Shown: piece after piece, positions 963 through 22,517 of the stretch
How positions within the stretch are numbered: the first letter of the stretch is position 1
How the letters are laid out: each line of letters opens with the position of its first letter
Source: Ignisphaera sp.
GTDB taxonomy: Archaea > Thermoproteota > Thermoprotei_A > Sulfolobales > Ignisphaeraceae
Length of the DNA: 23,037 nt
Direction of reading: 5' to 3'
Assembly: GCA_038821645.1 (NCBI GenBank)
Contig: JAWBDT010000006.1
Coordinates: 64,146 to 87,182, forward strand
Notes under the pieces: model-generated
The model's input: only the letters and a program-made list of their open reading frames with translations
Database searches by the model: none
Told to the model about the DNA's origin: nothing
Made by a program: the position numbers and the translations under genes

Positions 963-1700
963 TTATGTATGCATAACGCTTTCCTTCTTCTTGATCTGTT
1001 GATCATAGAGCTCTTGAATCATTTTCTCTATCTCTTCAACTTTTTCTGCATAACTAAGTAGTTCACTTACATCAATTTCTGTGCTAATAATTGATGAAAG
1101 TATTTTTACAGCTATTGCTGCAGCCTTATGGTCTATTGTTTCTGGTTGAGTATATGGTAGAATAGCTACTGCTGGAATATTGTTTTGTTGAAGAGATATA
1201 AGGATTGAGGCTAGAGGACCTACTATGTAGGCTCCTTTTATAAAGTAGGGTGCATTAAGTTCTCTCTTGCTTGATGATGTTTTAAGCCATCTATACTCTT
1301 CCTCACCTTCTCTAAAACGTGCATCAAGTCCACCAAACAACACAACTTCAGCTATCTGAATTTTCTTTAGAAGAGCTAGAAACTCATTAATGAAGCTGAA
1401 CATATATCTTCTTTCTGGATTTACTCTATTGAGTAACACTACTACGCTACATCCATTGTCTAGATGTCTATAGAATATTTCGTGAGGCATACTGAATCCA
1501 TAATCTTCAATAGATGTGAAATCAGGTATGTTAGGAGGCTCTATATAGCCTATAAAATCCATAGTGAGTTTAGATACAATGTATCTAGGGGCTAAGAACC
1601 CTACAGCTCCAAATCCTTGGAATCCTGTAACAAGATACGTTTTATCACCTTTGAACTCGTTTTTAAGTAACTTAAGCTTATAACTCTTTCTCATTTTCAT
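963..1700 (-). CDS. PAC2-family proteasome assembly chaperone (Pba-like)
   Basis: Motifs GFQGFGAVGFLA, LFGGLD, IVGPLA, LPY...DHKAA. Last gene of the pan operon. The start may be the ATG at 1694. Confidence 0.85.
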   Translation of the reverse strand: MKMRKSYKLKLLKNEFKGDKTYLVTGFQGFGAVGFLAPRYIVSKLTMDFIGYIEPPNIPDFTSIEDYGFSMPHEIFYRHLDNGCSVVVLLNRVNPERRYMFSFINEFLALLKKIQIAEVVLFGGLDARFREGEEEYRWLKTSSSKRELNAPYFIKGAYIVGPLASILISLQQNNIPAVAILPYTQPETIDHKAAAIAVKILSSIISTEIDVSELLSYAEKVEEIEKMIQELYDQQIKKKESVMHT

Positions 1701-2208
1701 TTCTATTCACCAACTTTTCTCTAATTTGTACAGCTACACCATAGGTAGCTGTTATCATTGTTTCGTAGTCTAGTAATGCTCTACCTACACTGATAAGCTT
1801 ATCATCTTCATCAACAACCAGCACCTCATCGTATGGCCTTATAGATTCATCTGCTTTCATAATATGTTTAGCGAATATAGAGTTTCCCTTAACTATATCA
1901 TCCACCATTTCATTGGCTACCACAACCCGACGCTTAGGAAAGGATAGGACTTTATGAAGCAATATACCTAGCTCTATATGTGGAACTATATAGAAGTCTG
2001 ATGCTCTAACCATAGCTAAAATCCTGTCTCCATAAAGAAAAGCTCTAACTCTCTTAGTTTTACGAGAAAAACAGATCTTGATTTTCTCTACATCTATAAG
2101 GTCTAGAATTCTCGAAGATTCTTCACCAAACTGATAGATGAGCATATACATTAACATCTCTATACTTTCTTCATCTATACTTCTACATCTTAATGTTGCT
2201 GGAATCAG
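1678..2208 (-). CDS. PUA-domain RNA-binding protein (resembles the C-terminal region of archaeosine TGT, COG1370-like)
   Basis: YQFG, SRKTKRVR, then a PUA domain (GNSIFAKHI..ADESIRPYDEVLVVDEDDKLISVGRA...GVAVQIR). Start uncertain: CTG at 2208 has an SD; the ORF track uses ATG 2253. Confidence 0.85.
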   Translation of the reverse strand: MIPATLRCRSIDEESIEMLMYMLIYQFGEESSRILDLIDVEKIKICFSRKTKRVRAFLYGDRILAMVRASDFYIVPHIELGILLHKVLSFPKRRVVVANEMVDDIVKGNSIFAKHIMKADESIRPYDEVLVVDEDDKLISVGRALLDYETMITATYGVAVQIREKLVNRNENEKEL

Positions 2209-2224
2209 TTCTACACACCTAGAC

Positions 2225-3412
2225 CTATAGATGGAGTATACTTGTAGATACATGTCTAGATATGTAGGGTCTGAATCGTTCTTTCAAAATCTTGGCTATA
2301 CTGTACGTAAAATCGTTGGATGTAACGATATCTCTTCCTTCTCTAATGGCTCTTAAAGCTGCCTCTGTACATATGGCTTTGATTTCCGCACCTGTAGCTC
2401 CCTCAGTTAGTTTAGCTATCTCAATTAGGTCTACATCGTGAGCTAGAGGCATTTTGCGTGTATGTATCTTCAATATCTCGTATCTTCCCCTAATATCTGG
2501 TAGAGGTATCTCTATGATTTTATCGAATCTTCCAGGTCTAAGAATTGCTGGATCAAGTACATCTATTCTATTTGTTGTTGCAATTACTTTAACGTTATCT
2601 AAAGGATCAAAACCATCCATTTCAGCTAGAAGCTGTGTTAATGTTCTGTGTATTTCTCTCTCACCTGTTGTACCTACATCGAGTCTCTTAGCCGCTATAG
2701 CGTCTATCTCATCTATTAGAACTATAGATGGTGCCTTCTTTCTAGCGAGAGTGAAAAGTTCTTTAACAATTCTAGCTCCTTCACCTATAAACTTTTGAGC
2801 TAATTCAGAAGCTACAAGCCTTATAAATGTTGCATTAGTTTCATGAGCAAGAGCTTTAGCTAGTAATGTTTTTCCACATCCTGGAGGACCATAGAGAAGT
2901 ACTCCTTTTGGAGGCTCTATACCCATTGCCTTAAATTTGTGTGGATACTTTAGCGGAAGTTCTATAGCTTCTCTCAATTCATCTATTTGTTTCTCTAGAC
3001 CACCAATATCTTCATACCTGATGCTGGGTCTTTCAACAATTTCAAAAGCTTTAACGTATGGATCTTCAGATCTAGGAAGAACCTCTACTATAGCTGATCC
3101 ACGCTGATTGAGAGCTACAGAAGCACCAGGTTTAAGTCTAGATTTATCGACTGTTGGAAGAATGTATACAACAAGTACAGGTCCTGAAGAACTTTTAACT
3201 AATGCTCTATCACCATCAAGTACATCTAGAAGCGTTGCTTCAACTAATGGAGGTGCCATTAATTTCTCTACCTGAGACTTGTAGTACTCTAGTTCTTCAG
3301 CATACTTAGCCAAAGTCTCTCTAAGATTCTCTAATTCTGTCTCTAGTTCTCTAACTTTTAACTCTAGATATTCTGAGTAATGTTCACTACTACTGTCCTC
3401 AGTAGCCATCAT
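2225..3412 (-). CDS. pan: Proteasome-activating nucleotidase (AAA+ ATPase)
   Basis: N-terminal coiled coil, OB region (VKSSSGP), Walker A GPPGCGKT, pore loop KFIGEGAR, Walker [30 protein letters not shown]. The start may be the second ATG at 3409 (GGTGGA upstream). Confidence 0.97.
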
Positions 3413-3477
3413 AATCCACCAGATACTTGTTTACCAAGTATAAAGATAAAAACAGTTTACCACCTTAATATCTCTTG

Positions 3478-4062
3478 GTGATTCAACTGAAGAAAAATAA
3501 CGAACAGATTTATTGTGAAATGTGTGGAAATCCAATTGATAGAGGAGCAGAAAAGAGAGTAACTGTAGATAATATTTTATTAACAGTATGTGAGTCATGC
3601 TATACGAAACTATCTCCAAGAACATCAAAACAAGTTGTTACGAGAACTAATTTGGTGTCAGATAAATCGACAAAACAAGTTATACAAAAGCCTATAGCCA
3701 GTAAAACAGCAACTAGCTCTAGCCTAACTAAAGCTAAGAGTAAGCTCGATGTTGATAGGAAGTCCATCCCAAGTGAGCGATGGGAGCTTGTTGAAGATTA
3801 TTCCGAGAAGATAAAGAAGGCACGAGAATCTTTTGGATGGGATCCACGAACACTCGCCATAAAGGTAAAAGTTAGTGAGAATATTATAAAGAGAATTGAG
3901 AGTGGTAAACTTAGACCTACACTAGATCTGGCTAGAAAGCTTGAAGAGGTTCTGAACATAAAACTACTAGTGCCAGCTGTAGAAGATGAGTTGAAAAACG
4001 AAAAGATTGACAAGTACGTAACCTTGGGAGAAATAGTTGATATAAGAAGTGATAAGAGGTAG
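3478..4062 (+). CDS. mbf1: Archaeal multiprotein bridging factor 1 (Zn ribbon + Cro-type HTH)
   Basis: CEMC...CESC ribbon, ELVEDY..IKKARE HTH, RIESGKLRP, C-terminal TLGE. Divergent from pan, a known context. Start is among 3475, 3478 and 3487. Confidence 0.92.
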   Translation: MIQLKKNNEQIYCEMCGNPIDRGAEKRVTVDNILLTVCESCYTKLSPRTSKQVVTRTNLVSDKSTKQVIQKPIASKTATSSSLTKAKSKLDVDRKSIPSERWELVEDYSEKIKKARESFGWDPRTLAIKVKVSENIIKRIESGKLRPTLDLARKLEEVLNIKLLVPAVEDELKNEKIDKYVTLGEIVDIRSDKR

Positions 4063-4067
4063 ACAAC

Positions 4068-5168
4068 ATACTGGAAGAAACAATACTAGTAGTTAGAGCT
4101 GAAGATAGCAACAATATAGATGAAATACTATCTATATCGAGAGAGGCTGGTTTCAATGTAAAAGAGATTATCTATGTGAGAAAGACGAATAGCAAATGCT
4201 ATCTAAGCTCTTTCCAACTCTCTAAAGTTAAATCTATAGTTCAGAATAACAGTATCAAGAAGCTGTGTGTATATGATGAACTTAGACCAAGACATGTTAC
4301 ATGTTTAATGAAGGAGCTAGGGATAGAGGTTATAGATAAAGTTCTAATGATACTCACAGTCTTTCAGAATCATGCTGGTTCTAGAGAAGCCCTTCTCCAG
4401 ATAGAGATGGCGAGATTAAAGCATCAGTTACCGCTTATTCGTGACTGGATTAGAAGGATAAAGGCGGGCGAACTTCCAGGATTCTTAAGCTTAGGCCGAT
4501 ATGCTGTAGATATCTATTATAGACATATAACCAGACGTATAGCAAAGATATCGGAAGAGCTTGAGAAACTTAGAATCAAGAGGTCACATGAACGTGAGAA
4601 GAGAAAGAAGCAAGGGTTTATACATGTAGCTATAGTCGGTTACACAAATGCTGGTAAAACCACTCTATTCAATACTTTAACTAATCTTGTTAAACCCACA
4701 GGAATCGAAATGTTTACAACACTTTCCCCCAAATCGTATATGATAAGGATATGTGGAATTAACATTGTGGTTACAGATACCATAGGTTTCATTAAGAACA
4801 TACCTATAGGAATTATAGAGGCATTTAGAGCTGTTCTAGAAGAGATAAGTGATGCTGATGTAGTGCTACTGGTAATAGATGGAAGTAAAGTTTTAGATCA
4901 AGTAGAAATTGAGTTAAAGACCTCGCTCAATATACTGAAGGATATAGGGGCTTTAGGCAAGCCTTTGATAATAGCTCTAAATAAAATAGATGTAGCAAAT
5001 GATGCAAACATTAGCGATATAGTTGAACTAATTAAGATAAACACTAATGAATACAAAACACAGCTTATAGATGTCATCACTATATCAGCTTTAAAGAGAT
5101 ACAACATAGACCTACTCAAGGATGCTTTATGTCGTACTGTACAACAAGTCCAGAGAAACTTGGTATAG
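4068..5168 (+). CDS. hflX: GTPase HflX
   Basis: IDKVLMIL.VF..HAGSREA.LQIEMARL, G1 GYTNAGKT, G2 FTTL, G3 DTIG, G4 NKID, G5 SAL. The frame is open from 4056, and the HflX N-domain requires a start at ATA 4068 or CTG 4071 rather than GTG 4176. Confidence 0.93.
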   Translation: MLEETILVVRAEDSNNIDEILSISREAGFNVKEIIYVRKTNSKCYLSSFQLSKVKSIVQNNSIKKLCVYDELRPRHVTCLMKELGIEVIDKVLMILTVFQNHAGSREALLQIEMARLKHQLPLIRDWIRRIKAGELPGFLSLGRYAVDIYYRHITRRIAKISEELEKLRIKRSHEREKRKKQGFIHVAIVGYTNAGKTTLFNTLTNLVKPTGIEMFTTLSPKSYMIRICGINIVVTDTIGFIKNIPIGIIEAFRAVLEEISDADVVLLVIDGSKVLDQVEIELKTSLNILKDIGALGKPLIIALNKIDVANDANISDIVELIKINTNEYKTQLIDVITISALKRYNIDLLKDALCRTVQQVQRNLV

Positions 5169-5698
5169 ATGTTTATGTACTTAGGCTTGGACATAGGCCT
5201 AGTAGAGATCGTAGAGTAACTACGCATGTAGCGCTTGTTGCTAGAGCTTTTGGAGCTAGAGGAATCTATATTGCTGAGATTGTTGATGAGAATGTTAGAA
5301 GATCTATAGAGAAGGTGATAGATCGTTGGGGTGGTAGATACTTCAAGATAGAGATGGGGATAAATCCTGTAAATCTTATTGATAGCTTTAGAAATAGTGG
5401 TGGATGTATTGTACATCTAACTATGTATGGTCTACCTCTCGATAGCGTTATAGATGTTGTTAGAGAGAACTGTAACAAGATACTAGTTGTTGTAGGTTCT
5501 GAAAAAGTCGAGAGGATATTCTATGAACTTGCTGATTACAATATAGCTGTAGGCAGTCAGCCTCATTCAGAAGTATCAGCATTAGCTCTATTTCTCGATA
5601 GACTCTGGAAAGGTGTAGAACTAGGATTATGTTTCCATGACGCAAAATACTATATTATACCGAGTACAAAAAGTAAGGTGGTGAAGAGAGTTGAGTGA
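5129..5698 (+). CDS. trm56: tRNA (cytidine56-2'-O)-methyltransferase, SPOUT family
   Basis: LRLGHRP.RD.RVTTHVALVARAFGA, VHLTMYG, VVVGSEKV, NIAVGSQPHSEVSALA.FLDRL. Confidence 0.96.
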   Translation: MSYCTTSPEKLGIDVYVLRLGHRPSRDRRVTTHVALVARAFGARGIYIAEIVDENVRRSIEKVIDRWGGRYFKIEMGINPVNLIDSFRNSGGCIVHLTMYGLPLDSVIDVVRENCNKILVVVGSEKVERIFYELADYNIAVGSQPHSEVSALALFLDRLWKGVELGLCFHDAKYYIIPSTKSKVVKRVE

Positions 5699-6185
5699 TG
5701 ATGTCCTCCTTAAGGTTGTAGAGGCTATAGCTGGTGAAAATGGTAAAAGAATTGTGGTATCTCTACTGGAATCAGAAACAGGTAAAAGTGATGAAGAGTT
5801 AAGCAATGAACTTAATATAAGGGTAAACGATGTTAGGAGATTACTTTATGAATTAGCAAATCATGGATTTGTAGCCTACAATAGATCCACAAGAAGTGAT
5901 ACTCGATGGCATGATTATACATGGTTTACAAATAGACCCATGCTGGAGCAAGCGGTAAAGAAGAGAAAGAGAGAGATAATCAGAATTCTAGAGGAGAGAC
6001 TTTCGTATGAAGAGCTCCACACATCATATATATGTCCTATGGATTCAACGCAATACTCATTTGATGAAGCTTTCGAAAACAATTTCCGATGCCTAAAATG
6101 TGGAGCTGAGCTTGTGGAGCTTGATAACAGAAAACTTGTGTCGTATCTTAGACAGCTAATAGATGAATTGAAGAAAAGTGTATAG
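5691..6185 (+). CDS. tfe: Transcription factor E (TFE alpha)
   Basis: Winged helix (SDEELS..L....NDVRRLLYEL), Zn ribbon CPMD...FDEAFENNFRCLKCG..L...DN. SD GGTGA lies 6 nt before TTG 5691. Confidence 0.95.
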   Translation: MSDDVLLKVVEAIAGENGKRIVVSLLESETGKSDEELSNELNIRVNDVRRLLYELANHGFVAYNRSTRSDTRWHDYTWFTNRPMLEQAVKKRKREIIRILEERLSYEELHTSYICPMDSTQYSFDEAFENNFRCLKCGAELVELDNRKLVSYLRQLIDELKKSV

Positions 6186-6187
6186 CT

Positions 6188-7132
6188 ATGAAATATACAA
6201 TTGTAGATCTTTTCTGTGGAGGTGGAGGATTCTCTATAGGCTTTAGAGCTACTGGCTATAGAATAGCTATAGCTATAGATAATGACCCAGTATGTGGAAA
6301 GACATTCAAGTTCAATTTTCCTAATACAATAGTTTTAGTTGAAGATATAAGAGATATAGATGGAAGAGATATAACATACTTTATTGGTAGAACACCAGAT
6401 ATAGTCATCGGTAGCCCTCCTTGTGAACCATTCACAGGAGCAAACCCTAAGAGAGAGAAAGATCCTTTGGATCGTCTCTACAAGGATCCACAAGGAACTC
6501 TTGTTCTAGACTTCATAAGGCTTGTAGGTGAGCTTAAGCCACGGATATTCATAATGGAGAATGTGCCAGCATTAAATGTGCCTGAAATAAGAGAATCTAT
6601 AGTTAGAGAATTTAGCTATATTGGATACAGCCAGATTTTCTTTAATCTACTTAAGGCAGAAGATTATGGAACTCCAAGTAGAAGAACTCGATTGTTTGTA
6701 TCTAATGTCGTTTTGAAGCCTAAGCCTATTGGTAGAAAGGTGCTGGTGAGAGATGTGTTAAAGGATATCTCATGTGAAACAGATTTGCCTAACAATACAT
6801 GTCTATATCCTACTGATAGAAAGTTGAAGAGAATAGTAAGGATTAGCTGGGGTAAAGCTCTCTTCTATTATCAGGGAGCTTTAAAAAGAATTCCAAATTA
6901 TATAAGACTAGATCCAAATGATTTAGCTCCAACTGTTCTAGGTTCATCAAGGTTTTTACATCCTTATGAAAATCGTATATTAACTGTACGTGAACAAGCA
7001 AGGCTTATGGGATTTCCAGACGATCATGTATTTTTTGGTGATAGAGATCAGCAATATAATCAGGTAGGTGAAGCTGTTCCTCCACCACTATCTTACTCTA
7101 TAGCCTTATATCTACGTGAGAACTATATCTAG
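6188..7132 (+). CDS. dcm: C5-cytosine methyltransferase (Dcm/DNMT fold), orphan
   Basis: Motif I DLFCGGGG, IV GSPPCEPF, VI MENV, VIII GTPSRRTRLF, IX RILTVREQARLMGFP, X GEAVPP. The symbol is family-level only; the substrate is unknown. Confidence 0.92.
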   Translation: MKYTIVDLFCGGGGFSIGFRATGYRIAIAIDNDPVCGKTFKFNFPNTIVLVEDIRDIDGRDITYFIGRTPDIVIGSPPCEPFTGANPKREKDPLDRLYKDPQGTLVLDFIRLVGELKPRIFIMENVPALNVPEIRESIVREFSYIGYSQIFFNLLKAEDYGTPSRRTRLFVSNVVLKPKPIGRKVLVRDVLKDISCETDLPNNTCLYPTDRKLKRIVRISWGKALFYYQGALKRIPNYIRLDPNDLAPTVLGSSRFLHPYENRILTVREQARLMGFPDDHVFFGDRDQQYNQVGEAVPPPLSYSIALYLRENYI

Positions 7133-7148
7133 ATTGAGGTGAAGCACT

Positions 7149-7628
7149 ATATCCATACAGCTATACTTGATAGCTTATGCCCCTTCAAGTCCTCATAGAC
7201 TTTATGACTTAGCTAAGCTGGCTTTTTCAATGAGTATTGTTTCAGCATTTATCGTTGTAAAACCCGTAGGTATAGCAGCTCAAACAGGTCTACCCGAGGT
7301 CTTTAAGCTTGCTTATAAGCTCGATAGAAGGTTTTTGGTGTTTCCTAGACTTCAAGATCTGAAGGAGATGATTAAGATAGATGAGGCTTTATTCATAGTC
7401 CATAATGTTGATGATGCTCCTGATATATGTGAAATAGACTTTAGAGATAGAGAGAATATCGGTGTAGTTGTTCAGGCAGGTGAAACCCCATTCACTAAAG
7501 AGGATTTAGCTATGGGGAGAATAGTGAAGATGCGTGAAATAGATGCATATAGAGCACCTAATGCTGTAGCTGATGCAGCTATAGCTTTAACAAAGCTATA
7601 TAGGTTGTTTAAGAATGTATTATGTTGA
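7149..7628 (+). CDS. DUF2122/COG4080-like protein (labelled RecB-family nuclease in databases, predicted SPOUT-like)
   Basis: SS.HRL.DLAKL...FIVVKPVGIAAQTGLPEVFKLAYK matches my recollection of the family signature (GxAAQxGxP). Start is ATA 7149 (SD GAGGTGA) or TTG 7167. Confidence 0.7.
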   Translation: MSIQLYLIAYAPSSPHRLYDLAKLAFSMSIVSAFIVVKPVGIAAQTGLPEVFKLAYKLDRRFLVFPRLQDLKEMIKIDEALFIVHNVDDAPDICEIDFRDRENIGVVVQAGETPFTKEDLAMGRIVKMREIDAYRAPNAVADAAIALTKLYRLFKNVLC

Positions 7629-9292
7629 TATACAAAGGCTTGGTTGATGTGGAAAAAGTACTTGTTATTGATGCAAATGCGCGTTGTAGTGGAAAGAGGT
7701 TTGCTACACTTGATGTTATAGGTGTGGGTCCAAGACTTATTACCGCCTTACTCAAGAGCTACGGATTTGAGGCTGTTCTTCATCCCTATGAAAATATTAT
7801 AAATAACCCGAGACTAGTTAAAAATTATGATGTTGTTGCTGTATCTTTTATGGTCAGCGATATTGTTGCTGTACAAAAACTTTTAAAATCATTGAAAAGA
7901 TTTCGAGAAAACAGAGGTCTTGTTGTTTTAGGTGGTCCAGGAACTCTAGATGAAGATGTTCTTAAAATTCTAGATTTTGATGTAGCATTTATTGGTGAAG
8001 CTGAATACACTTTTCACTATCTATTCCATAGATGTGGTTATCGCTCATTTCGCGAACTAGTTCACGAAATAGGTAACAGTAGAGAAGTTCCAAAAGGTTT
8101 AGCTATAAAACGTGGAAATAACGTTGTAAGTGGTGGTCTAGGTTATTGGGTACCTAAGGATCTGCTTTTCAAAGTTATACCCGAAATTAATGATGTAAAG
8201 AATTATCCATATTATTGGGCATGTAGAATCTATGTAGAAGTTGTTAGAGGATGTAGTAATTTCTGTAGACCATCTATTACTAGTTTATGTAGTGAATGTG
8301 GAATATGTAATTCTAAAGATTTAAGTAAAAGAGTTGTATGTCCAGCAGGTATACCACCTGGCTGTGGCTACTGTAATGTTCCATTAGTACATGGGTATGC
8401 AAGATCGAGAGACATATACTCTATAGTTGAAGAAGTACACAAACTAATTGATCTTGGAGCTACACGAATTGTTCTAAGTGCTCCAGATTTCCTAGATTTT
8501 GGTAGAGATGCTAAAGTTCAAGACATTCTCACAGATCCCTGCAACCCTTCACCAAATATAGATATGATAGAGAAACTCCTTGAAGAGCTTACAAACGTTG
8601 AACAAGTAAGTGAAGGCAAAGCATCTATATCTATTGAAAACATTAAGGCTTGTCTAGTAAATAGAGAGGTTGCTGAGGTATTAGGCAAATATCTCAAGAA
8701 TACAGCAATATACATAGGGCTTGAGAGCTGTAGCAATAAACTTCTGAATATTGTTGGTAGACCTTCGAAATGTGAAGATGTTTTAAACGCTATAAAACTC
8801 CTAGTCAATAAAGGGTTAAGACCCTACGTTTATTTGATTCACGGACTTCCTCACGAAGATGTAGAAGATATAAAGAAAACTATAGGAGTGATACCTCTTC
8901 TGAAGGATCTAGGCGTAGAAAGAATTGTACTCTACAGATTTAGATCTCTACCTAGAACAGCTTTCGAAAAAATAGATAAAGTTGTTGAAGCTATTGATCC
9001 AGAGATAGTAAAATATCGAGAAATATTGAAAGAAGAGGTTAGAAAGTTTAATAGCTATCGTAAAATGGAGCTCATTGGTAGACATATTGATGTGGTTATT
9101 GCTTCAAAACATCATAAACATCAACACTATCTAGTTGGATATCCATTAACTCACGGTCCTGTAACTCTAATAAAGACTTCCAAGAGATACATAGGCTATT
9201 TAGCTAGAGTTAAGATAGTTAAAGCTTTAAGTGATAGAATTGTGTTGGGAGAAATAATACATATAAAGCAGAAGATAGTTAAGAATTTGTAG
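7622..9292 (+). CDS. Radical SAM protein with B12-binding-like N-domain and C-terminal TRAM-like domain
   Basis: N-domain LDVIGVGPR...LGGP...FIGEAE; EVVRGC...GCGYC; SR....IVEEV; IGLES; YLIHGLP; beta-rich C-terminus (IGYLARVKIVKALSDRIVLGEI). The start may be GTG 7649. Confidence 0.88.
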   Translation: MLIYKGLVDVEKVLVIDANARCSGKRFATLDVIGVGPRLITALLKSYGFEAVLHPYENIINNPRLVKNYDVVAVSFMVSDIVAVQKLLKSLKRFRENRGLVVLGGPGTLDEDVLKILDFDVAFIGEAEYTFHYLFHRCGYRSFRELVHEIGNSREVPKGLAIKRGNNVVSGGLGYWVPKDLLFKVIPEINDVKNYPYYWACRIYVEVVRGCSNFCRPSITSLCSECGICNSKDLSKRVVCPAGIPPGCGYCNVPLVHGYARSRDIYSIVEEVHKLIDLGATRIVLSAPDFLDFGRDAKVQDILTDPCNPSPNIDMIEKLLEELTNVEQVSEGKASISIENIKACLVNREVAEVLGKYLKNTAIYIGLESCSNKLLNIVGRPSKCEDVLNAIKLLVNKGLRPYVYLIHGLPHEDVEDIKKTIGVIPLLKDLGVERIVLYRFRSLPRTAFEKIDKVVEAIDPEIVKYREILKEEVRKFNSYRKMELIGRHIDVVIASKHHKHQHYLVGYPLTHGPVTLIKTSKRYIGYLARVKIVKALSDRIVLGEIIHIKQKIVKNL

Positions 9293-9395
9293 TCGTATCC
9301 ACATGACGAGGATCCAACTATACATATAGATCAAAAGGTATTTGCTTGAAATCTAGACTGTACCTCTCATTAAGATATATAGGTTGGAAAGATAA

Positions 9396-9749
9396 GTGAG
9401 TCAAATAAAGGTGAACCGCAAGGTGAAGGTATCGGTTATAGAGCTTACATCATTTGAAGACATGGTACTGTTTCTGTACTCAAGACTCACAACCATGAAC
9501 ATAAACTCGGCACTACTATGTAACACCAGAAATTGCTTCACGATAATAACAGCTAGCGATCAACAGATATTCGTAATATCATCTCCTCCACCACAAGAAC
9601 AAAGATGCAGATATTCATATCTCGACGACTATGGAAAAGTTAAATGTAGCGATACACCTCTACCAGGCAGACCTACGATATTCATACTGCAAGTCAAGGA
9701 AATTAAAGAGAAAGAAAGCCTTGTAGAGGCTTTAACTAGCTCAAGATAA
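9396..9749 (+). CDS. Hypothetical protein (possibly a small crenarchaeal conserved family)
   Basis: Fills the gap between the radical SAM gene and the tRNA, with a purine-rich leader and plausible composition. No motif securely recognised. Confidence 0.65.
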   Translation: MSQIKVNRKVKVSVIELTSFEDMVLFLYSRLTTMNINSALLCNTRNCFTIITASDQQIFVISSPPPQEQRCRYSYLDDYGKVKCSDTPLPGRPTIFILQVKEIKEKESLVEALTSSR

Positions 9750-9846
9750 TTTACCTCTATCATCAGAACACCAAAGCGAGAACCAGAATAAATATTTTTA
9801 GGTTTCTGCAGAAAATCACAAAATATGTGTAAGTCTATAGAGTAGT

Positions 9847-9931
9847 GCGGGGGTGCCCGAGCCAGGTCAAAGGGGTCGGGCTGAGGACCCGATGGCGTAG
9901 GCCTGCGTGGGTTCAAATCCCACCCCCCGCA
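9847..9931 (+). tRNA. tRNA-Leu (anticodon GAG), no intron, CCA not encoded
   Basis: Acceptor GCGGGGG/CCCCCGC-A, anticodon arm TCGGG-CTGAGGA-CCCGA, long variable arm, T arm GTGGG-TTCAAAT-CCCAC. Confidence 0.97.
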
Positions 9932-10217
9932 TCAACATTTCACAACCTATCTATCGACATTCATTAGGATACATCTATAGGTAATAGTATTTGATATAAG
10001 TATGTAATAAATTGTTTTGTAAAAATTTTGGAGACTCTATTCTCTAAGTCGATACAATGATTTACGATCTATATGTATAGAATTCATACACCTTGAACTT
10101 AATTGAGAAATCTATCTGAAAGAGTATCATCAACTTTACAGCCTTAATGATTTTGATTAATAAACTTTAGTTGTACAGTATGTGTAACGGTTAGATGTTA
10201 AGATAAAGTGATGTTTT

Positions 10218-10553
10218 ATGATATATGGATGGGAGGCTAAATGGATTCGCAGAAAATACAAAATGGGTGAAGGATTAGAAATCGAGACTTGTCAGGATTT
10301 GTCTACAGGTCTTATAGTATGTCCTCTTTGTGTAGATATATCGTATTTATGTCCCAGTTTCACAGAACCTTCAACAGCTTCTATATCTACAGATGCTGTA
10401 TTTTTCTTTTCTTCTGAAGATCTATTCCATCATATGAAGGCTCATGCAAAAGCCGGAGAATGGAGTAAACACATACCTAGTGAAGTGGAAGAAGAAGGAG
10501 AAGAGTATTTTGAAGAGGAAGGAGAAGAAGATTCAGCTACAGATGATGTTTAA
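10218..10553 (+). CDS. Small C2H2-type zinc-finger-like protein with acidic tail
   Basis: TGLIVCPLC...FFFSSEDLFHHMKAH followed by an E/D-rich tail. Overlaps the aglB 3' end convergently by 21 nt. Confidence 0.75.
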   Translation: MIYGWEAKWIRRKYKMGEGLEIETCQDLSTGLIVCPLCVDISYLCPSFTEPSTASISTDAVFFFSSEDLFHHMKAHAKAGEWSKHIPSEVEEEGEEYFEEEGEEDSATDDV

Positions 10554-12965
10554 AAACTCGTCTTTAAGTTTCAGTATAGACACAAACACATATCTATACA
10601 TGTTGTTGCTTAATTCTACTGGTTGTGAGATAGATATGTAAGCTATATCATAAATATCTTGGTTAAGCTTCGCTGGATCTAGAGAGTATCCAAAGATTAG
10701 TGGATCAGGGAATATAGCTAAACTTCCTTCATGACTTACAGCAAGTAGTGTGGATACAATAGTTTGTTCAAATGATGGATATAGATCTTCTAAAGCCTTT
10801 GATACCGACCACATAAACAGCCTTGGAAGAGTTGCATTTAAGACTCTTTCTGAATCTATATTTAGAGATACAAATGATGTGATTCTCTGTCCTAGTGAAC
10901 CTGAGATTAACACATGATTAATCCATTCATTGTTATATATATCAAACTGATAGAGTGAAGTACTGTAAGTAAGATTCTCTTGAGCCCATCTACCTGTCGC
11001 TAAATAAACTATTGCGCTTATGAACTTAGGTATATCGCCAAAGCCTTGGGGATATACAGGAAAAGCAATGAATAGTTTCTTGGCTTCTGGAACTATATAG
11101 ACATCGACTGGACTAAATATAACTATATACACCTCCTTCTTACTGCACACACCAAAATCTTTCAGCTGTCTATAGGTTTCATTATAGCTATTGGTAAAGA
11201 ATTTCGCTAATTTTTGTATCTTCTCAGAATTTATTGTAGCTCCATCTGCTACAGTAGATCTGTTCCCTATTACCGAAAGCCAGTAGCCGTAATCCCACCA
11301 ACTTATGACTAGAGAATCTTGAGAAGTATTTCTCTGTAAGAACCTTAAGGCAGATATCCAAACATCTGTAGGTGTGTAAAAACCTTCAGCTATCGCTATC
11401 ATTGGATACTTGTTGTAAACTACTGAAGAAGCATAAGCTAAATATATAGATGGAATGGTGATAGATAGAGCTATAAGTAGTGTGATAAGTTTCGTAAAGT
11501 CCATCTTAACTTTAATTGCCTTACCTATGTATGTTATCTGTGGTTTGGCGAGAAACAGTAATCTACCTACACTATAGCCTAGTACAGAAGCAAAAACCAC
11601 TTTAGTGTAGTCGCTAAAGTATGCAGTATTGTAGGTTGCATACCATGATAAGAAAGCCCATATAGAGAATATTAATGATATATACGCTCTATTCTTAAAG
11701 GCATCGTACAGAGCTGTAGGAATCAATATAAATATCAGCAACAGTAAGTATACAACCATGTACCACTCAAGATATTCACCACCAGGTCTGTACTGAGCAA
11801 CAGTAGCTGCAACACCACCAGGGTTAATACCAAGGCCTAGTAAAATCTTACCAGCAATAGGTATAACTCTATTGAGTTGTTGCAGAAATCCGGGGACACT
11901 TGCCGCTAGACCTAATATCGTTACACTTGTGATTACTAGTACAAGTAATACAGCTATGTATATTTTCATTGGAGATACTGTAAATATTCTCTTAATACCC
12001 TTAGACTTCTTAGTAGACTTTTTAGCATATAACGACCTAGCTCTAGAGCCTAGAAACAGACTAAGTAAGGCTCCAAAAATATAGAAGGCGAAAGCTATAG
12101 GAAATGCTAGGCATATTATCGCTCTTCCACCATGATATGCCTTCATAGAGATCATCGCTATAATAGGTATCGCTATCTCTATCGCAAAAACTAGTGTATA
12201 TTTCTTAAAGTTATCTACTTGTGTTAAATCTATGAAAATTGGTGCAAGAACTAAAGTTACATAGATAGGTACTGCTGTAAGCCCTATACCTGTCCATACA
12301 CTTGCAGCATATCCTATAGCCATCCCCGCCAATACACTATTAAGTAGGTTTGGTTTTTTGAGTAGACGTATGTGGAGCCATAGAACTAGTGGAGCTGTAA
12401 ACAATCCGAAACTGTACTTAACTGTGAATCCAGCTACTTCTCTACTTAGAAAAACTAGTGCATAAGCAAATGCTGAAATAATTGATGCTATATCACTCCT
12501 AGTCAATTCTTTTACTGCTAATGCTGTAAAAATCACACCTAAAGCGCCAAGCATAGGCGGTATAAGTGCCATTAGATCTAGTAACTCTACACCAAATAAT
12601 TTAACAAATTGATACAGGAAATATATCGTGAGTAAGTGACCTGGTAACTCTGTTGCATAAAGATTCCGACACTCAGGATACCAGAATAAACATGTAGCTG
12701 GATTCTTTTCCGTTAGGTCAAGTAGAGATTCAAGACCGTGACGATCCATATAGCTTACTATCCAATAATTCACATATGGATCTAATTCATCTAGTTTAGC
12801 TTCAGGATACACAATCCCCATACCAATATTGATGACATTAAGATACTGTTGAACCCTTAACCAGAAACCAACAATAGATGCAACCAGAACTAATATTGCT
12901 GCGATAAGTCTAGAATGACTATCCCAGAAACTATATACCTTTCCATATATCTTCGATAGCACCAT
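10533..12965 (-). CDS. aglB: Oligosaccharyltransferase AglB (STT3 family)
   Basis: LRV..., ELDPY, many TM helices, TVAQY (TIXE-like), WWDYGYW...GNRSTVADG, DIPK. SD AGGTAGGT upstream of the ATG. Confidence 0.95.
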   Translation of the reverse strand: MVLSKIYGKVYSFWDSHSRLIAAILVLVASIVGFWLRVQQYLNVINIGMGIVYPEAKLDELDPYVNYWIVSYMDRHGLESLLDLTEKNPATCLFWYPECRNLYATELPGHLLTIYFLYQFVKLFGVELLDLMALIPPMLGALGVIFTALAVKELTRSDIASIISAFAYALVFLSREVAGFTVKYSFGLFTAPLVLWLHIRLLKKPNLLNSVLAGMAIGYAASVWTGIGLTAVPIYVTLVLAPIFIDLTQVDNFKKYTLVFAIEIAIPIIAMISMKAYHGGRAIICLAFPIAFAFYIFGALLSLFLGSRARSLYAKKSTKKSKGIKRIFTVSPMKIYIAVLLVLVITSVTILGLAASVPGFLQQLNRVIPIAGKILLGLGINPGGVAATVAQYRPGGEYLEWYMVVYLLLLIFILIPTALYDAFKNRAYISLIFSIWAFLSWYATYNTAYFSDYTKVVFASVLGYSVGRLLFLAKPQITYIGKAIKVKMDFTKLITLLIALSITIPSIYLAYASSVVYNKYPMIAIAEGFYTPTDVWISALRFLQRNTSQDSLVISWWDYGYWLSVIGNRSTVADGATINSEKIQKLAKFFTNSYNETYRQLKDFGVCSKKEVYIVIFSPVDVYIVPEAKKLFIAFPVYPQGFGDIPKFISAIVYLATGRWAQENLTYSTSLYQFDIYNNEWINHVLISGSLGQRITSFVSLNIDSERVLNATLPRLFMWSVSKALEDLYPSFEQTIVSTLLAVSHEGSLAIFPDPLIFGYSLDPAKLNQDIYDIAYISISQPVELSNNMYRYVFVSILKLKDEFLNIICS

Positions 12966-22438: not shown

Positions 22439-22517
22439 GCGGCGGTCGTCTAGCCTGGTCTAGGACGCCGGCCTTCCAAGCCGGAGATCCCGGGTTCAAA
22501 TCCCGGCCGCCGCACCA
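22439..22517 (+). tRNA. tRNA-Gly (anticodon TCC), no intron, CCA encoded
   Basis: Acceptor GCGGCGG/CCGCCGC-A-CCA, anticodon arm CCGGC-CTTCCAA-GCCGG, T arm CCGGG-TTCAAAT-CCCGG. Confidence 0.97.

Follow-up and report, generated by a model that had tools for sequence, protein, structure and literature searches.

The 23,037-nucleotide (nt) window analysed here, from Ignisphaera sp. (contig JAWBDT010000006.1, positions 64,146 to 87,182 of the forward strand), carries three tightly linked genes that encode a C5-cytosine methyltransferase, a DUF2122/COG4080 protein and a radical S-adenosylmethionine (SAM) protein (Table 1). As a first-pass annotation of the sequence had reported, they follow trm56 and the TFE gene on the same strand: the TFE stop codon ends at 6185 and the methyltransferase ATG lies at 6188, leaving a gap of 2 nt, the methyltransferase stop codon is followed after 34 nt by the TTG of the listed DUF2122 open reading frame (ORF), and the ATG of the radical SAM gene overlaps the DUF2122 stop codon by 7 nt. 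For all three proteins the nearest relatives carry the label Ignisphaera. The annotation had proposed that the three genes form one nucleic-acid modification module. Here, we report that the methyltransferase and DUF2122 genes are adjacent almost throughout the related loci of one archaeal phylum, whereas the radical SAM gene stands behind them only in Ignisphaera, and that the DUF2122 protein is predicted to have the fold of SPOUT methyltransferases.

Related loci were collected with the methyltransferase as anchor, because the DUF2122 alignments were too divergent for a locus search; DUF2122 genes without a methyltransferase therefore lie outside the view of this survey. The best 80 of at least 581 confirmed candidates (at least 600 pattern matches), one per species, were scanned in six frames, the queries being the neighbouring proteins of the window and a profile for each of the three families. 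All 80 loci belong to Thermoproteota, and their methyltransferases are 52–70% identical to that of the window. DUF2122 adjoins the methyltransferase in 72 of the 79 assessable loci: 64 have both genes on one strand, and eight (by label six Pyrodictiaceae, one unassigned Desulfurococcales and one Thermoproteota) have them on opposite strands. In one further locus (L072) DUF2122 lies 2.2 kb away. Loci with the adjacent pair include ones labelled Desulfurococcales, Sulfolobales, Thermofilales and Thermoproteales. TFE stands directly 5′ of the methyltransferase in 68/80 loci, which share one housekeeping position; in 11 assessable loci TFE is absent upstream, and there the pair is mostly retained behind other genes, namely, in Thermofilales, MCM with a Hel308-type helicase, and elsewhere a polyprenyl synthase, TtuA-like or glycosyltransferase gene. 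Among the 65 same-strand pairs the distance from the methyltransferase stop codon to the DUF2122 start, as estimated by script, has a median of 1 nt, with 29 pairs overlapping and 23 spaced by 0–20 nt. This spacing and overlap suggest translational coupling, and the pair is a conserved, probably co-translated unit. The proposed three-gene module therefore stands for the methyltransferase and DUF2122 and falls for the radical SAM gene, which adjoins the pair in five of 51 assessable loci; the linkage of the latter is patchy among relatives, that of the pair is not.

Table 1. Positions of the genes and other features discussed, numbered from the first letter of the window.
Feature	Position	Strand	Size	Remarks
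C5-cytosine methyltransferase	6188..7132	+	314 aa	PF00145 E 2e-50; TIGR00675 E 7e-40
DUF2122/COG4080 SPOUT-fold protein (predicted fold)	7143..7628 (listed ORF 7167-7628)	+	153 aa (listed ORF)	PF09895 E 3e-17
Radical SAM protein	7622..9292	+	556 aa	PF04055 Radical_SAM E 8e-17
Trm56	5129-5698	+		PF01994 E 9e-45; outside the conserved pair
TFE	5691-6185	+		PF02002 E 6e-21; outside the conserved pair
aMBF1	3475-4062	+
HflX	4176-5168	+
117-aa ORF	9396-9749	+	117 aa	No Pfam, NCBIfam or PADLOC match
tRNA-Leu(GAG)	9846-9933			Last element of the packed + strand array

Several loci differ in detail. In L072 (Thermogladius sp. 4427co) the methyltransferase and DUF2122 are separated by a 559-aa ORF (9302-10981) that has no Pfam match at E ≤ 1e-5, is without relatives among the other 79 loci and contains a Gly/Ala/Ser-rich stretch near its C-terminus. 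The Thermofilales loci in which the methyltransferase follows MCM and the Hel308-type helicase rather than TFE are L019 (3159-9476), L031 (3672-9485) and L043 (3195-8951); in L019 and L043 the MCM gene is interrupted by an intein, and L043 has no DUF2122 gene within its flank. Two other loci in which DUF2122 is missing, L013 and L076, have 362-aa ORFs behind the methyltransferase that are unrelated to each other. A tRNA-Val gene lies directly 3′ of DUF2122 in several loci.

The DUF2122 family is small, with 77 proteins at E ≤ 0.001 in a search of 1.84 billion representative proteins. An AlphaFold2 model based on 73 sequences reached a pLDDT of 96.3 and a pTM of 0.90. Compared with the Protein Data Bank (PDB) by Foldseek, this model gave 90 matches at E ≤ 0.001, and all 49 that were listed are SPOUT methyltransferases, including TrmL/YibK, TrmH, CspR, TrmJ (the Sulfolobus acidocaldarius enzyme among them), AviRb and RlmB, with template-modelling (TM) scores of 0.65–0.77 over about 150 columns and E values down to 4e-7; no nuclease is found among the matches listed. 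In the predicted structure, then, DUF2122 has a SPOUT fold, which confirms at the level of the model the SPOUT-like assignment predicted for COG4080 in 2007 (Tkaczuk et al., PMC1829167) and mentioned in the first-pass annotation. The name 'RecB-family nuclease' attached to DUF2122 is, on the same model, ruled out: neither the fold matches listed, nor a sequence search of solved structures, nor PADLOC (0 families matched) places the protein with the PD-(D/E)xK nucleases, and the nuclease label of COG4080 has twice been judged spurious (PMC1829167; PMC2441816).

The DUF2122 protein resembles the SpoU-class 2′-O-methyltransferases (TrmH, TrmL and TrmJ) in its predicted fold, in a G-x-E motif after strand 5 and in a C-terminal helix with the pattern A-x-x-I-x-L-Y, and differs from them in that no solved SPOUT protein matches it significantly in sequence: a phmmer search of solved structures returned no match and a profile search of them one chance-level match. 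Within the G-x-E motif, G104 is kept in 54/73 members and E/D106 in 71/73, and 68/73 have a basic residue, R/K11, where helix 1 begins. The strongest conservation falls on a family-specific motif after strand 2, K-x-x-G-x-A-A-Q-x-G-x-P-E (G35, A37, A38, Q39, G41 and E44), of which G35, A37, A38 and G41 each occur in 69–70 of the 73 members. We know of no such motif in SpoU-class enzymes.

In the window, the DUF2122 frame is open from 7143 and contains no ATG, GTG or TTG ahead of the TTG at 7167; the residues encoded before this TTG (..IQLYL) align with the first β-strand of DUF2122 homologues, and a Shine–Dalgarno-like GAGGTGA occupies 7136-7142, ahead of the open frame. Judged by this alignment, the true start probably lies upstream of 7167. 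An 88-aa version of the window protein in public sequence data (P0013) has a length that suggests a truncated gene call.

The methyltransferase matches PF00145 over profile positions 1–319 of 324. All C5 motifs are present, the catalytic ones included: I (FxGxGG), IV (PC), VI (ENV), VIII (RxR), IX and X. The target-recognition region shows high conservation, and among the columns without variation are F9, G11, G13, G14, P77, P78, C79, E124, N125, V126, R166 and R168. In the window protein motif IV reads PPCE (not PCQ) and motif X reads GEAVP, and PPCE, ENV and GE[AS]VP occur in 81/81 sequences (the 80 loci and the window). Relatives with 55–60% identity are found throughout Desulfurococcales, Sulfolobales and other Thermoprotei, Acidianus and Stygiolobus are represented among the 80 loci, and a protein labelled Ignisphaera aggregans (P0034) is 65% identical. 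A survey of archaeal methyltransferases describes a persistent 5-methylcytosine (m5C) methyltransferase group, HG2, in 99/100 Crenarchaeota, most Methanococci and Pyrococcus; two of its members, M.SuaII of S. acidocaldarius and M.Asp7I of Acidilobus sp. 7A, were expressed in Escherichia coli and there methylated CCWGG at its inner C (Anton et al., 2023; PMC10609329). In Table S3 of that survey an I. aggregans HG2 member shares its original cluster number with M.SuaII and M.Asp7I, and Acidianus and Stygiolobus are also entered with HG2 members. The orthologues in the shared genomic position and the I. aggregans entry point, by inference, to the window methyltransferase being an HG2 member. The likeness extends to a length of about 315 aa, to the absence of an endonuclease gene alongside, and to identities of 52–70% with genes in the same position across Thermoproteota, Sulfolobales included; a difference is that CCWGG specificity, shown for M.SuaII and M.Asp7I, is putative for the window protein. 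HG2 is treated as an orphan in the survey, which leaves the SPOUT neighbour unmentioned ('spout' occurs 0 times). The first-pass annotation regarded the substrate as unknown; this needs amending in so far as methyltransferase orthologues methylate CCWGG DNA in E. coli (PMC10609329), and otherwise holds.

The radical SAM gene was assessable in 51 loci, those with at least 2.5 kb of downstream sequence, and not in the other 29. It adjoins the pair in five of them (L001-L004 and L007), all Ignisphaera, and is absent near the pair in 46; in other lineages unrelated genes lie 3′ of the pair. Orthologues with about 40% identity exist in Desulfurococcales, Sulfolobales and Pyrolobus and are not beside the pair, and must therefore be encoded at other sites in these genomes. 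The gene belongs to a separate, widely distributed archaeal enzyme and stands behind the pair only in Ignisphaera.

The protein itself appears to comprise a flavodoxin-like or B12-binding-like N-terminal domain, a radical SAM core and a C-terminal TRAM-like β-barrel. Its AlphaFold2 model (pLDDT 92.7) contains a five-strand C-terminal domain at about residues 488–551 and is matched best by Foldseek, over its full length, to MtaB, MiaB, MgmA and RimO (E 6e-23 to 1e-17, TMt 0.72–0.77); TsrM, TokK and CysS resemble the model less closely than MiaB does. The best sequence match is MgmA (9ccb; E 4e-12). Seven cysteines are invariant in the family: C211, C248 and C251 form the radical SAM motif, C-(36)-C-x2-C (window 8252-8374), in place of CX3CX2C, and C223, C226, C229 and C240 form a Cys4 insert within it that is possibly a second metal site. 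Conservation does not extend to C215 of the window's 'CSNFC', and no invariant cysteine precedes residue 211, so that the N-terminal domain is without conserved cysteines. The Pfam TRAM profile, at E ≤ 0.01, matched neither the window protein nor any of 41 family members; the annotation's description of a MiaB-type enzyme with a TRAM domain holds at the level of the fold, the C-terminal domain being called TRAM-like from its predicted fold only, and does not hold at the level of Pfam. PF02310 (B12-binding) reaches 30.1 bits in the window protein, short of the 32.1 required, and at E ≤ 0.01 is detected in 36/41 members of the family. TIGR00089 and TIGR04013, each with a cut-off of 251 bits, give 86 and 131 bits respectively, the MtaB, RimO and MiaB models stay far below their cut-offs, and every NCBIfam equivalog cut-off is missed. 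In comparison with the methylthiotransferases and MgmA, the protein shares the flavodoxin-like domain, the radical SAM barrel and the C-terminal β-barrel of the three-domain architecture, as seen in the model, and differs from MiaB, MtaB and RimO in the N-terminal auxiliary-cluster cysteines, which it does not have, and in its motif. On this predicted structure it has a MiaB/MtaB-like architecture yet fails membership of the methylthiotransferases, and it belongs to an archaeal family with an unusual radical SAM motif. GrsA and GrsB are B12-binding radical SAM proteins (PMC11214058), which would make a glycerol dialkyl glycerol tetraether (GDGT) ring synthase a conceivable identity; the best fold matches, however, are to MiaB and MtaB.

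We consider it somewhat probable that the functional unit at this locus is a two-gene SAM-dependent nucleic-acid methylation operon, composed of the C5 methyltransferase and the SPOUT protein, rather than a three-gene one. In this operon the two proteins would share a nucleic-acid target. The C5 enzyme would make m5C, and the SPOUT protein, with its G-x-E knot motif and a basic R/K following strand 1, would either add a second methyl group to the shared substrate or serve as a SAM-binding specificity or regulatory subunit. RNA (tRNA or rRNA), with a catalytic SPOUT protein, is a plausible physiological substrate, if a little short of an even bet; DNA at CCWGG, where the SPOUT protein would restrain or direct the methyltransferase, is only slightly less probable; and other roles, or no functional coupling of the pair at all, take up the rest. 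A prediction of the complex between the methyltransferase and DUF2122 gave a score of 0.00 without controls and counts neither for nor against binding.

Several points weigh against the two-gene operon or against one of its proposed substrates. Interaction or a common substrate of the two proteins is deduced indirectly, and gene order may be inherited among related archaea without functional coupling; the 80 loci are the closest of at least 581 candidates and come from a single phylum. In six assessable loci DUF2122 was not found within the flank, and the methyltransferase is intact there. The 2007 analysis of COG4080 found neither the conserved catalytic Arg nor the Ser of 2′-O-methyltransferases (PMC1829167), and R/K11 is a candidate for the equivalent of that Arg; an hhalign comparison of DUF2122 with the Trm56 alignment aligned the knot region with a probability of 5%, which is not significant. 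Bulk DNA methylation is disfavoured by dot blots that detected no m5C in S. acidocaldarius DNA (Couturier and Lindas, 2018; PMC5809426), a study cited elsewhere for m5C being negligible in native DNA of this species (PMC10609329), and by MJ0563 and MJ1200 of Methanocaldococcus jannaschii, which have the PCE motif and showed no clear DNA methyltransferase activity (Zheng et al., PMC2615612). CCWGG is moreover not depleted (observed/expected 0.98 in 1.01 Mb) and its deamination products CTWGG and CCWAG together stand at 1.09 in the same 1.01 Mb, although CCWGG frequency is uninformative about methylation. An RNA substrate, in turn, is opposed by the two orthologues that act as site-specific DNA methyltransferases in E. 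coli (PMC10609329).

On the other side, RNA is favoured by the company of trm56 and tRNA genes, and DNA by the position of the pair behind MCM and Hel308 in Thermofilales. Apart from rare cases with a protein substrate, the SPOUT enzymes characterised to our knowledge are RNA enzymes. The inactivity of the M. jannaschii enzymes on lambda DNA also favours RNA (PMC2615612). CCWGG, the site that the methyltransferase orthologues methylate in DNA, recurs in the tRNA D-loop as C16-C17-W-G18-G19 in 33/69 tRNA genes predicted by ARAGORN in the loci, both tRNA genes of the window (9846-9933 and 22439-22517) among them; this coincidence is a lead only. Bacterial TrmH, a SpoU-type enzyme, methylates G18 in the D-loop. 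The part available of a paper on Ignicoccus tRNA has no word on D-loop m5C or 2′-O-methylguanosine at position 18 (PMC7337903). That the methyltransferase and its SPOUT partner modify RNA, for example in the tRNA D-loop, the former being neither an orphan nor primarily a DNA enzyme, is in this specific form a long shot. If true, it would provide a second, Dnmt2-independent enzyme of the DNMT family acting on RNA, and would account for why hyperthermophiles keep the gene despite undetected m5C in S. acidocaldarius DNA.

Other explanations of the locus have to be set against the two-gene operon. The methyltransferase might be a true orphan that methylates CCWGG in DNA epigenetically, next to an unrelated RNA methyltransferase, DUF2122, by inherited order. 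The published survey treats HG2 as an orphan (PMC10609329), the array of PAC2, PUA-domain protein and PAN opposite aMBF1, HflX, Trm56 and TFE is conserved as well and attests to strong inherited synteny, and the six loci without DUF2122 in the flank fit too. However, the pair is intact in most of the 11 loci that have lost the TFE context, its adjacency survives inversion in eight loci, 29/65 same-strand pairs overlap and the two genes are reported to be adjacent in a euryarchaeon (PMC2441816), and we regard this explanation as unlikely. Still less probable, to the point of being nearly discounted, is the model of the first-pass annotation, a single three-enzyme pathway in which the radical SAM/TRAM enzyme would join the C5 methyltransferase and the SPOUT protein in the stepwise modification of a cytosine or RNA site. 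The close packing of the genes in the window (the 34-nt gap and the 7-nt overlap), the repetition of the order in the five Ignisphaera loci and the predicted fold of the radical SAM protein, MiaB/MtaB-like and ending in a TRAM-like domain, which suits an RNA substrate, would be in keeping with such a pathway; against these stand the 46/51 loci that have no radical SAM gene near the pair, the orthologues with about 40% identity encoded elsewhere and the unrelated genes 3′ of the pair in other lineages. As a conserved module the three genes are largely refuted.

A type II restriction-modification system with DUF2122 as the cognate endonuclease has next to no probability. It is suggested by the Pfam and COG name of DUF2122 and by REBASE, which formerly placed the MjaORF1200P subfamily among putative restriction enzymes, a listing that has been ascribed solely to adjacency to the methyltransferase (PMC2441816). 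The confident DUF2122 model is, among the matches listed, similar to SPOUT methyltransferases only and to no nuclease, and the restriction-modification reading therefore fails; the same protein lacks a PADLOC match, the methyltransferase matched generic methyltransferase models only, and the methyltransferase family is vertically persistent rather than patchy, both in the published survey (PMC10609329) and in the 80 loci. No nuclease, Vsr or mobile-element family was detected in the 14 neighbouring ORFs scanned, and the gene occupies its housekeeping position in 68/80 loci. The first-pass annotation had likewise argued against restriction-modification, noting no such genes nearby and a native composition, and both observations are borne out: GC content is even, at 0.355–0.372 across the region against 0.315–0.382 across the whole window, and the surrounding housekeeping array is conserved.

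A known system close to this one in arrangement is that of M. jannaschii, where MJ1199 (COG4080) has been described as the neighbour of M.MjaORF1200P, a putative m5C methyltransferase (Orlowski and Bujnicki, 2008; PMC2441816). The likeness consists in a COG4080 SPOUT-like gene beside a methyltransferase with PCE for PCQ in motif IV, and in a nuclease annotation judged spurious; the difference lies in the phylum and in MJ1200 having shown no clear DNA methyltransferase activity in vitro (PMC2615612), the comparison resting on the published description. E. coli dcm-vsr is similar in that a CCWGG C5 methyltransferase gene overlaps a small partner gene at its 3′ end, and different in that the partner here has a predicted SPOUT fold and is not the Vsr endonuclease. 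The match to solved Dcm structures is confined to residues 3–133, the target-recognition regions being unlike at the sequence level, and the signature of very-short-patch repair is absent, as the frequencies of CCWGG and of CTWGG and CCWAG given above show.

The gene families and their pairwise association are already in print, the association being old knowledge for one genome, that of M. jannaschii; new here is the near-constant adjacency of the methyltransferase and DUF2122 across a phylum. No functional study of DUF2122/COG4080, MJ1199/MJ1200 or M.SuaII was found in a literature search that left most subscription journals outside. m5C deaminates fast at high temperature. It is a puzzle that a C5 methyltransferase is kept by almost all Crenarchaeota, yet m5C is undetected in S. 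acidocaldarius DNA, and the linkage to a SPOUT protein turns this puzzle of an orphan methyltransferase into a concrete question about two genes. Two corrections follow for annotation: the label 'RecB-family nuclease' on DUF2122 is unsupported, and the radical SAM gene is to be dropped from the proposed module.

Upstream of the pair, PAC2, a PUA-domain protein and PAN are encoded on one strand and aMBF1, HflX, Trm56 and TFE on the other (window 963-6185), an array kept in most Desulfurococcales and Sulfolobales loci. The resemblance of the PUA protein (1678-2253) to archaeosine synthase ArcS is limited to the C-terminal part of the latter. For HflX, the open frame reaches back to 4056, and the homologous ORFs of the loci begin before the listed GTG at 4176, so the gene may start right behind aMBF1. 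On the downstream side, the 117-aa ORF is kept 3′ of the radical SAM gene in the Ignisphaera loci L002, L003, L004 and L007 (124–154 bits).

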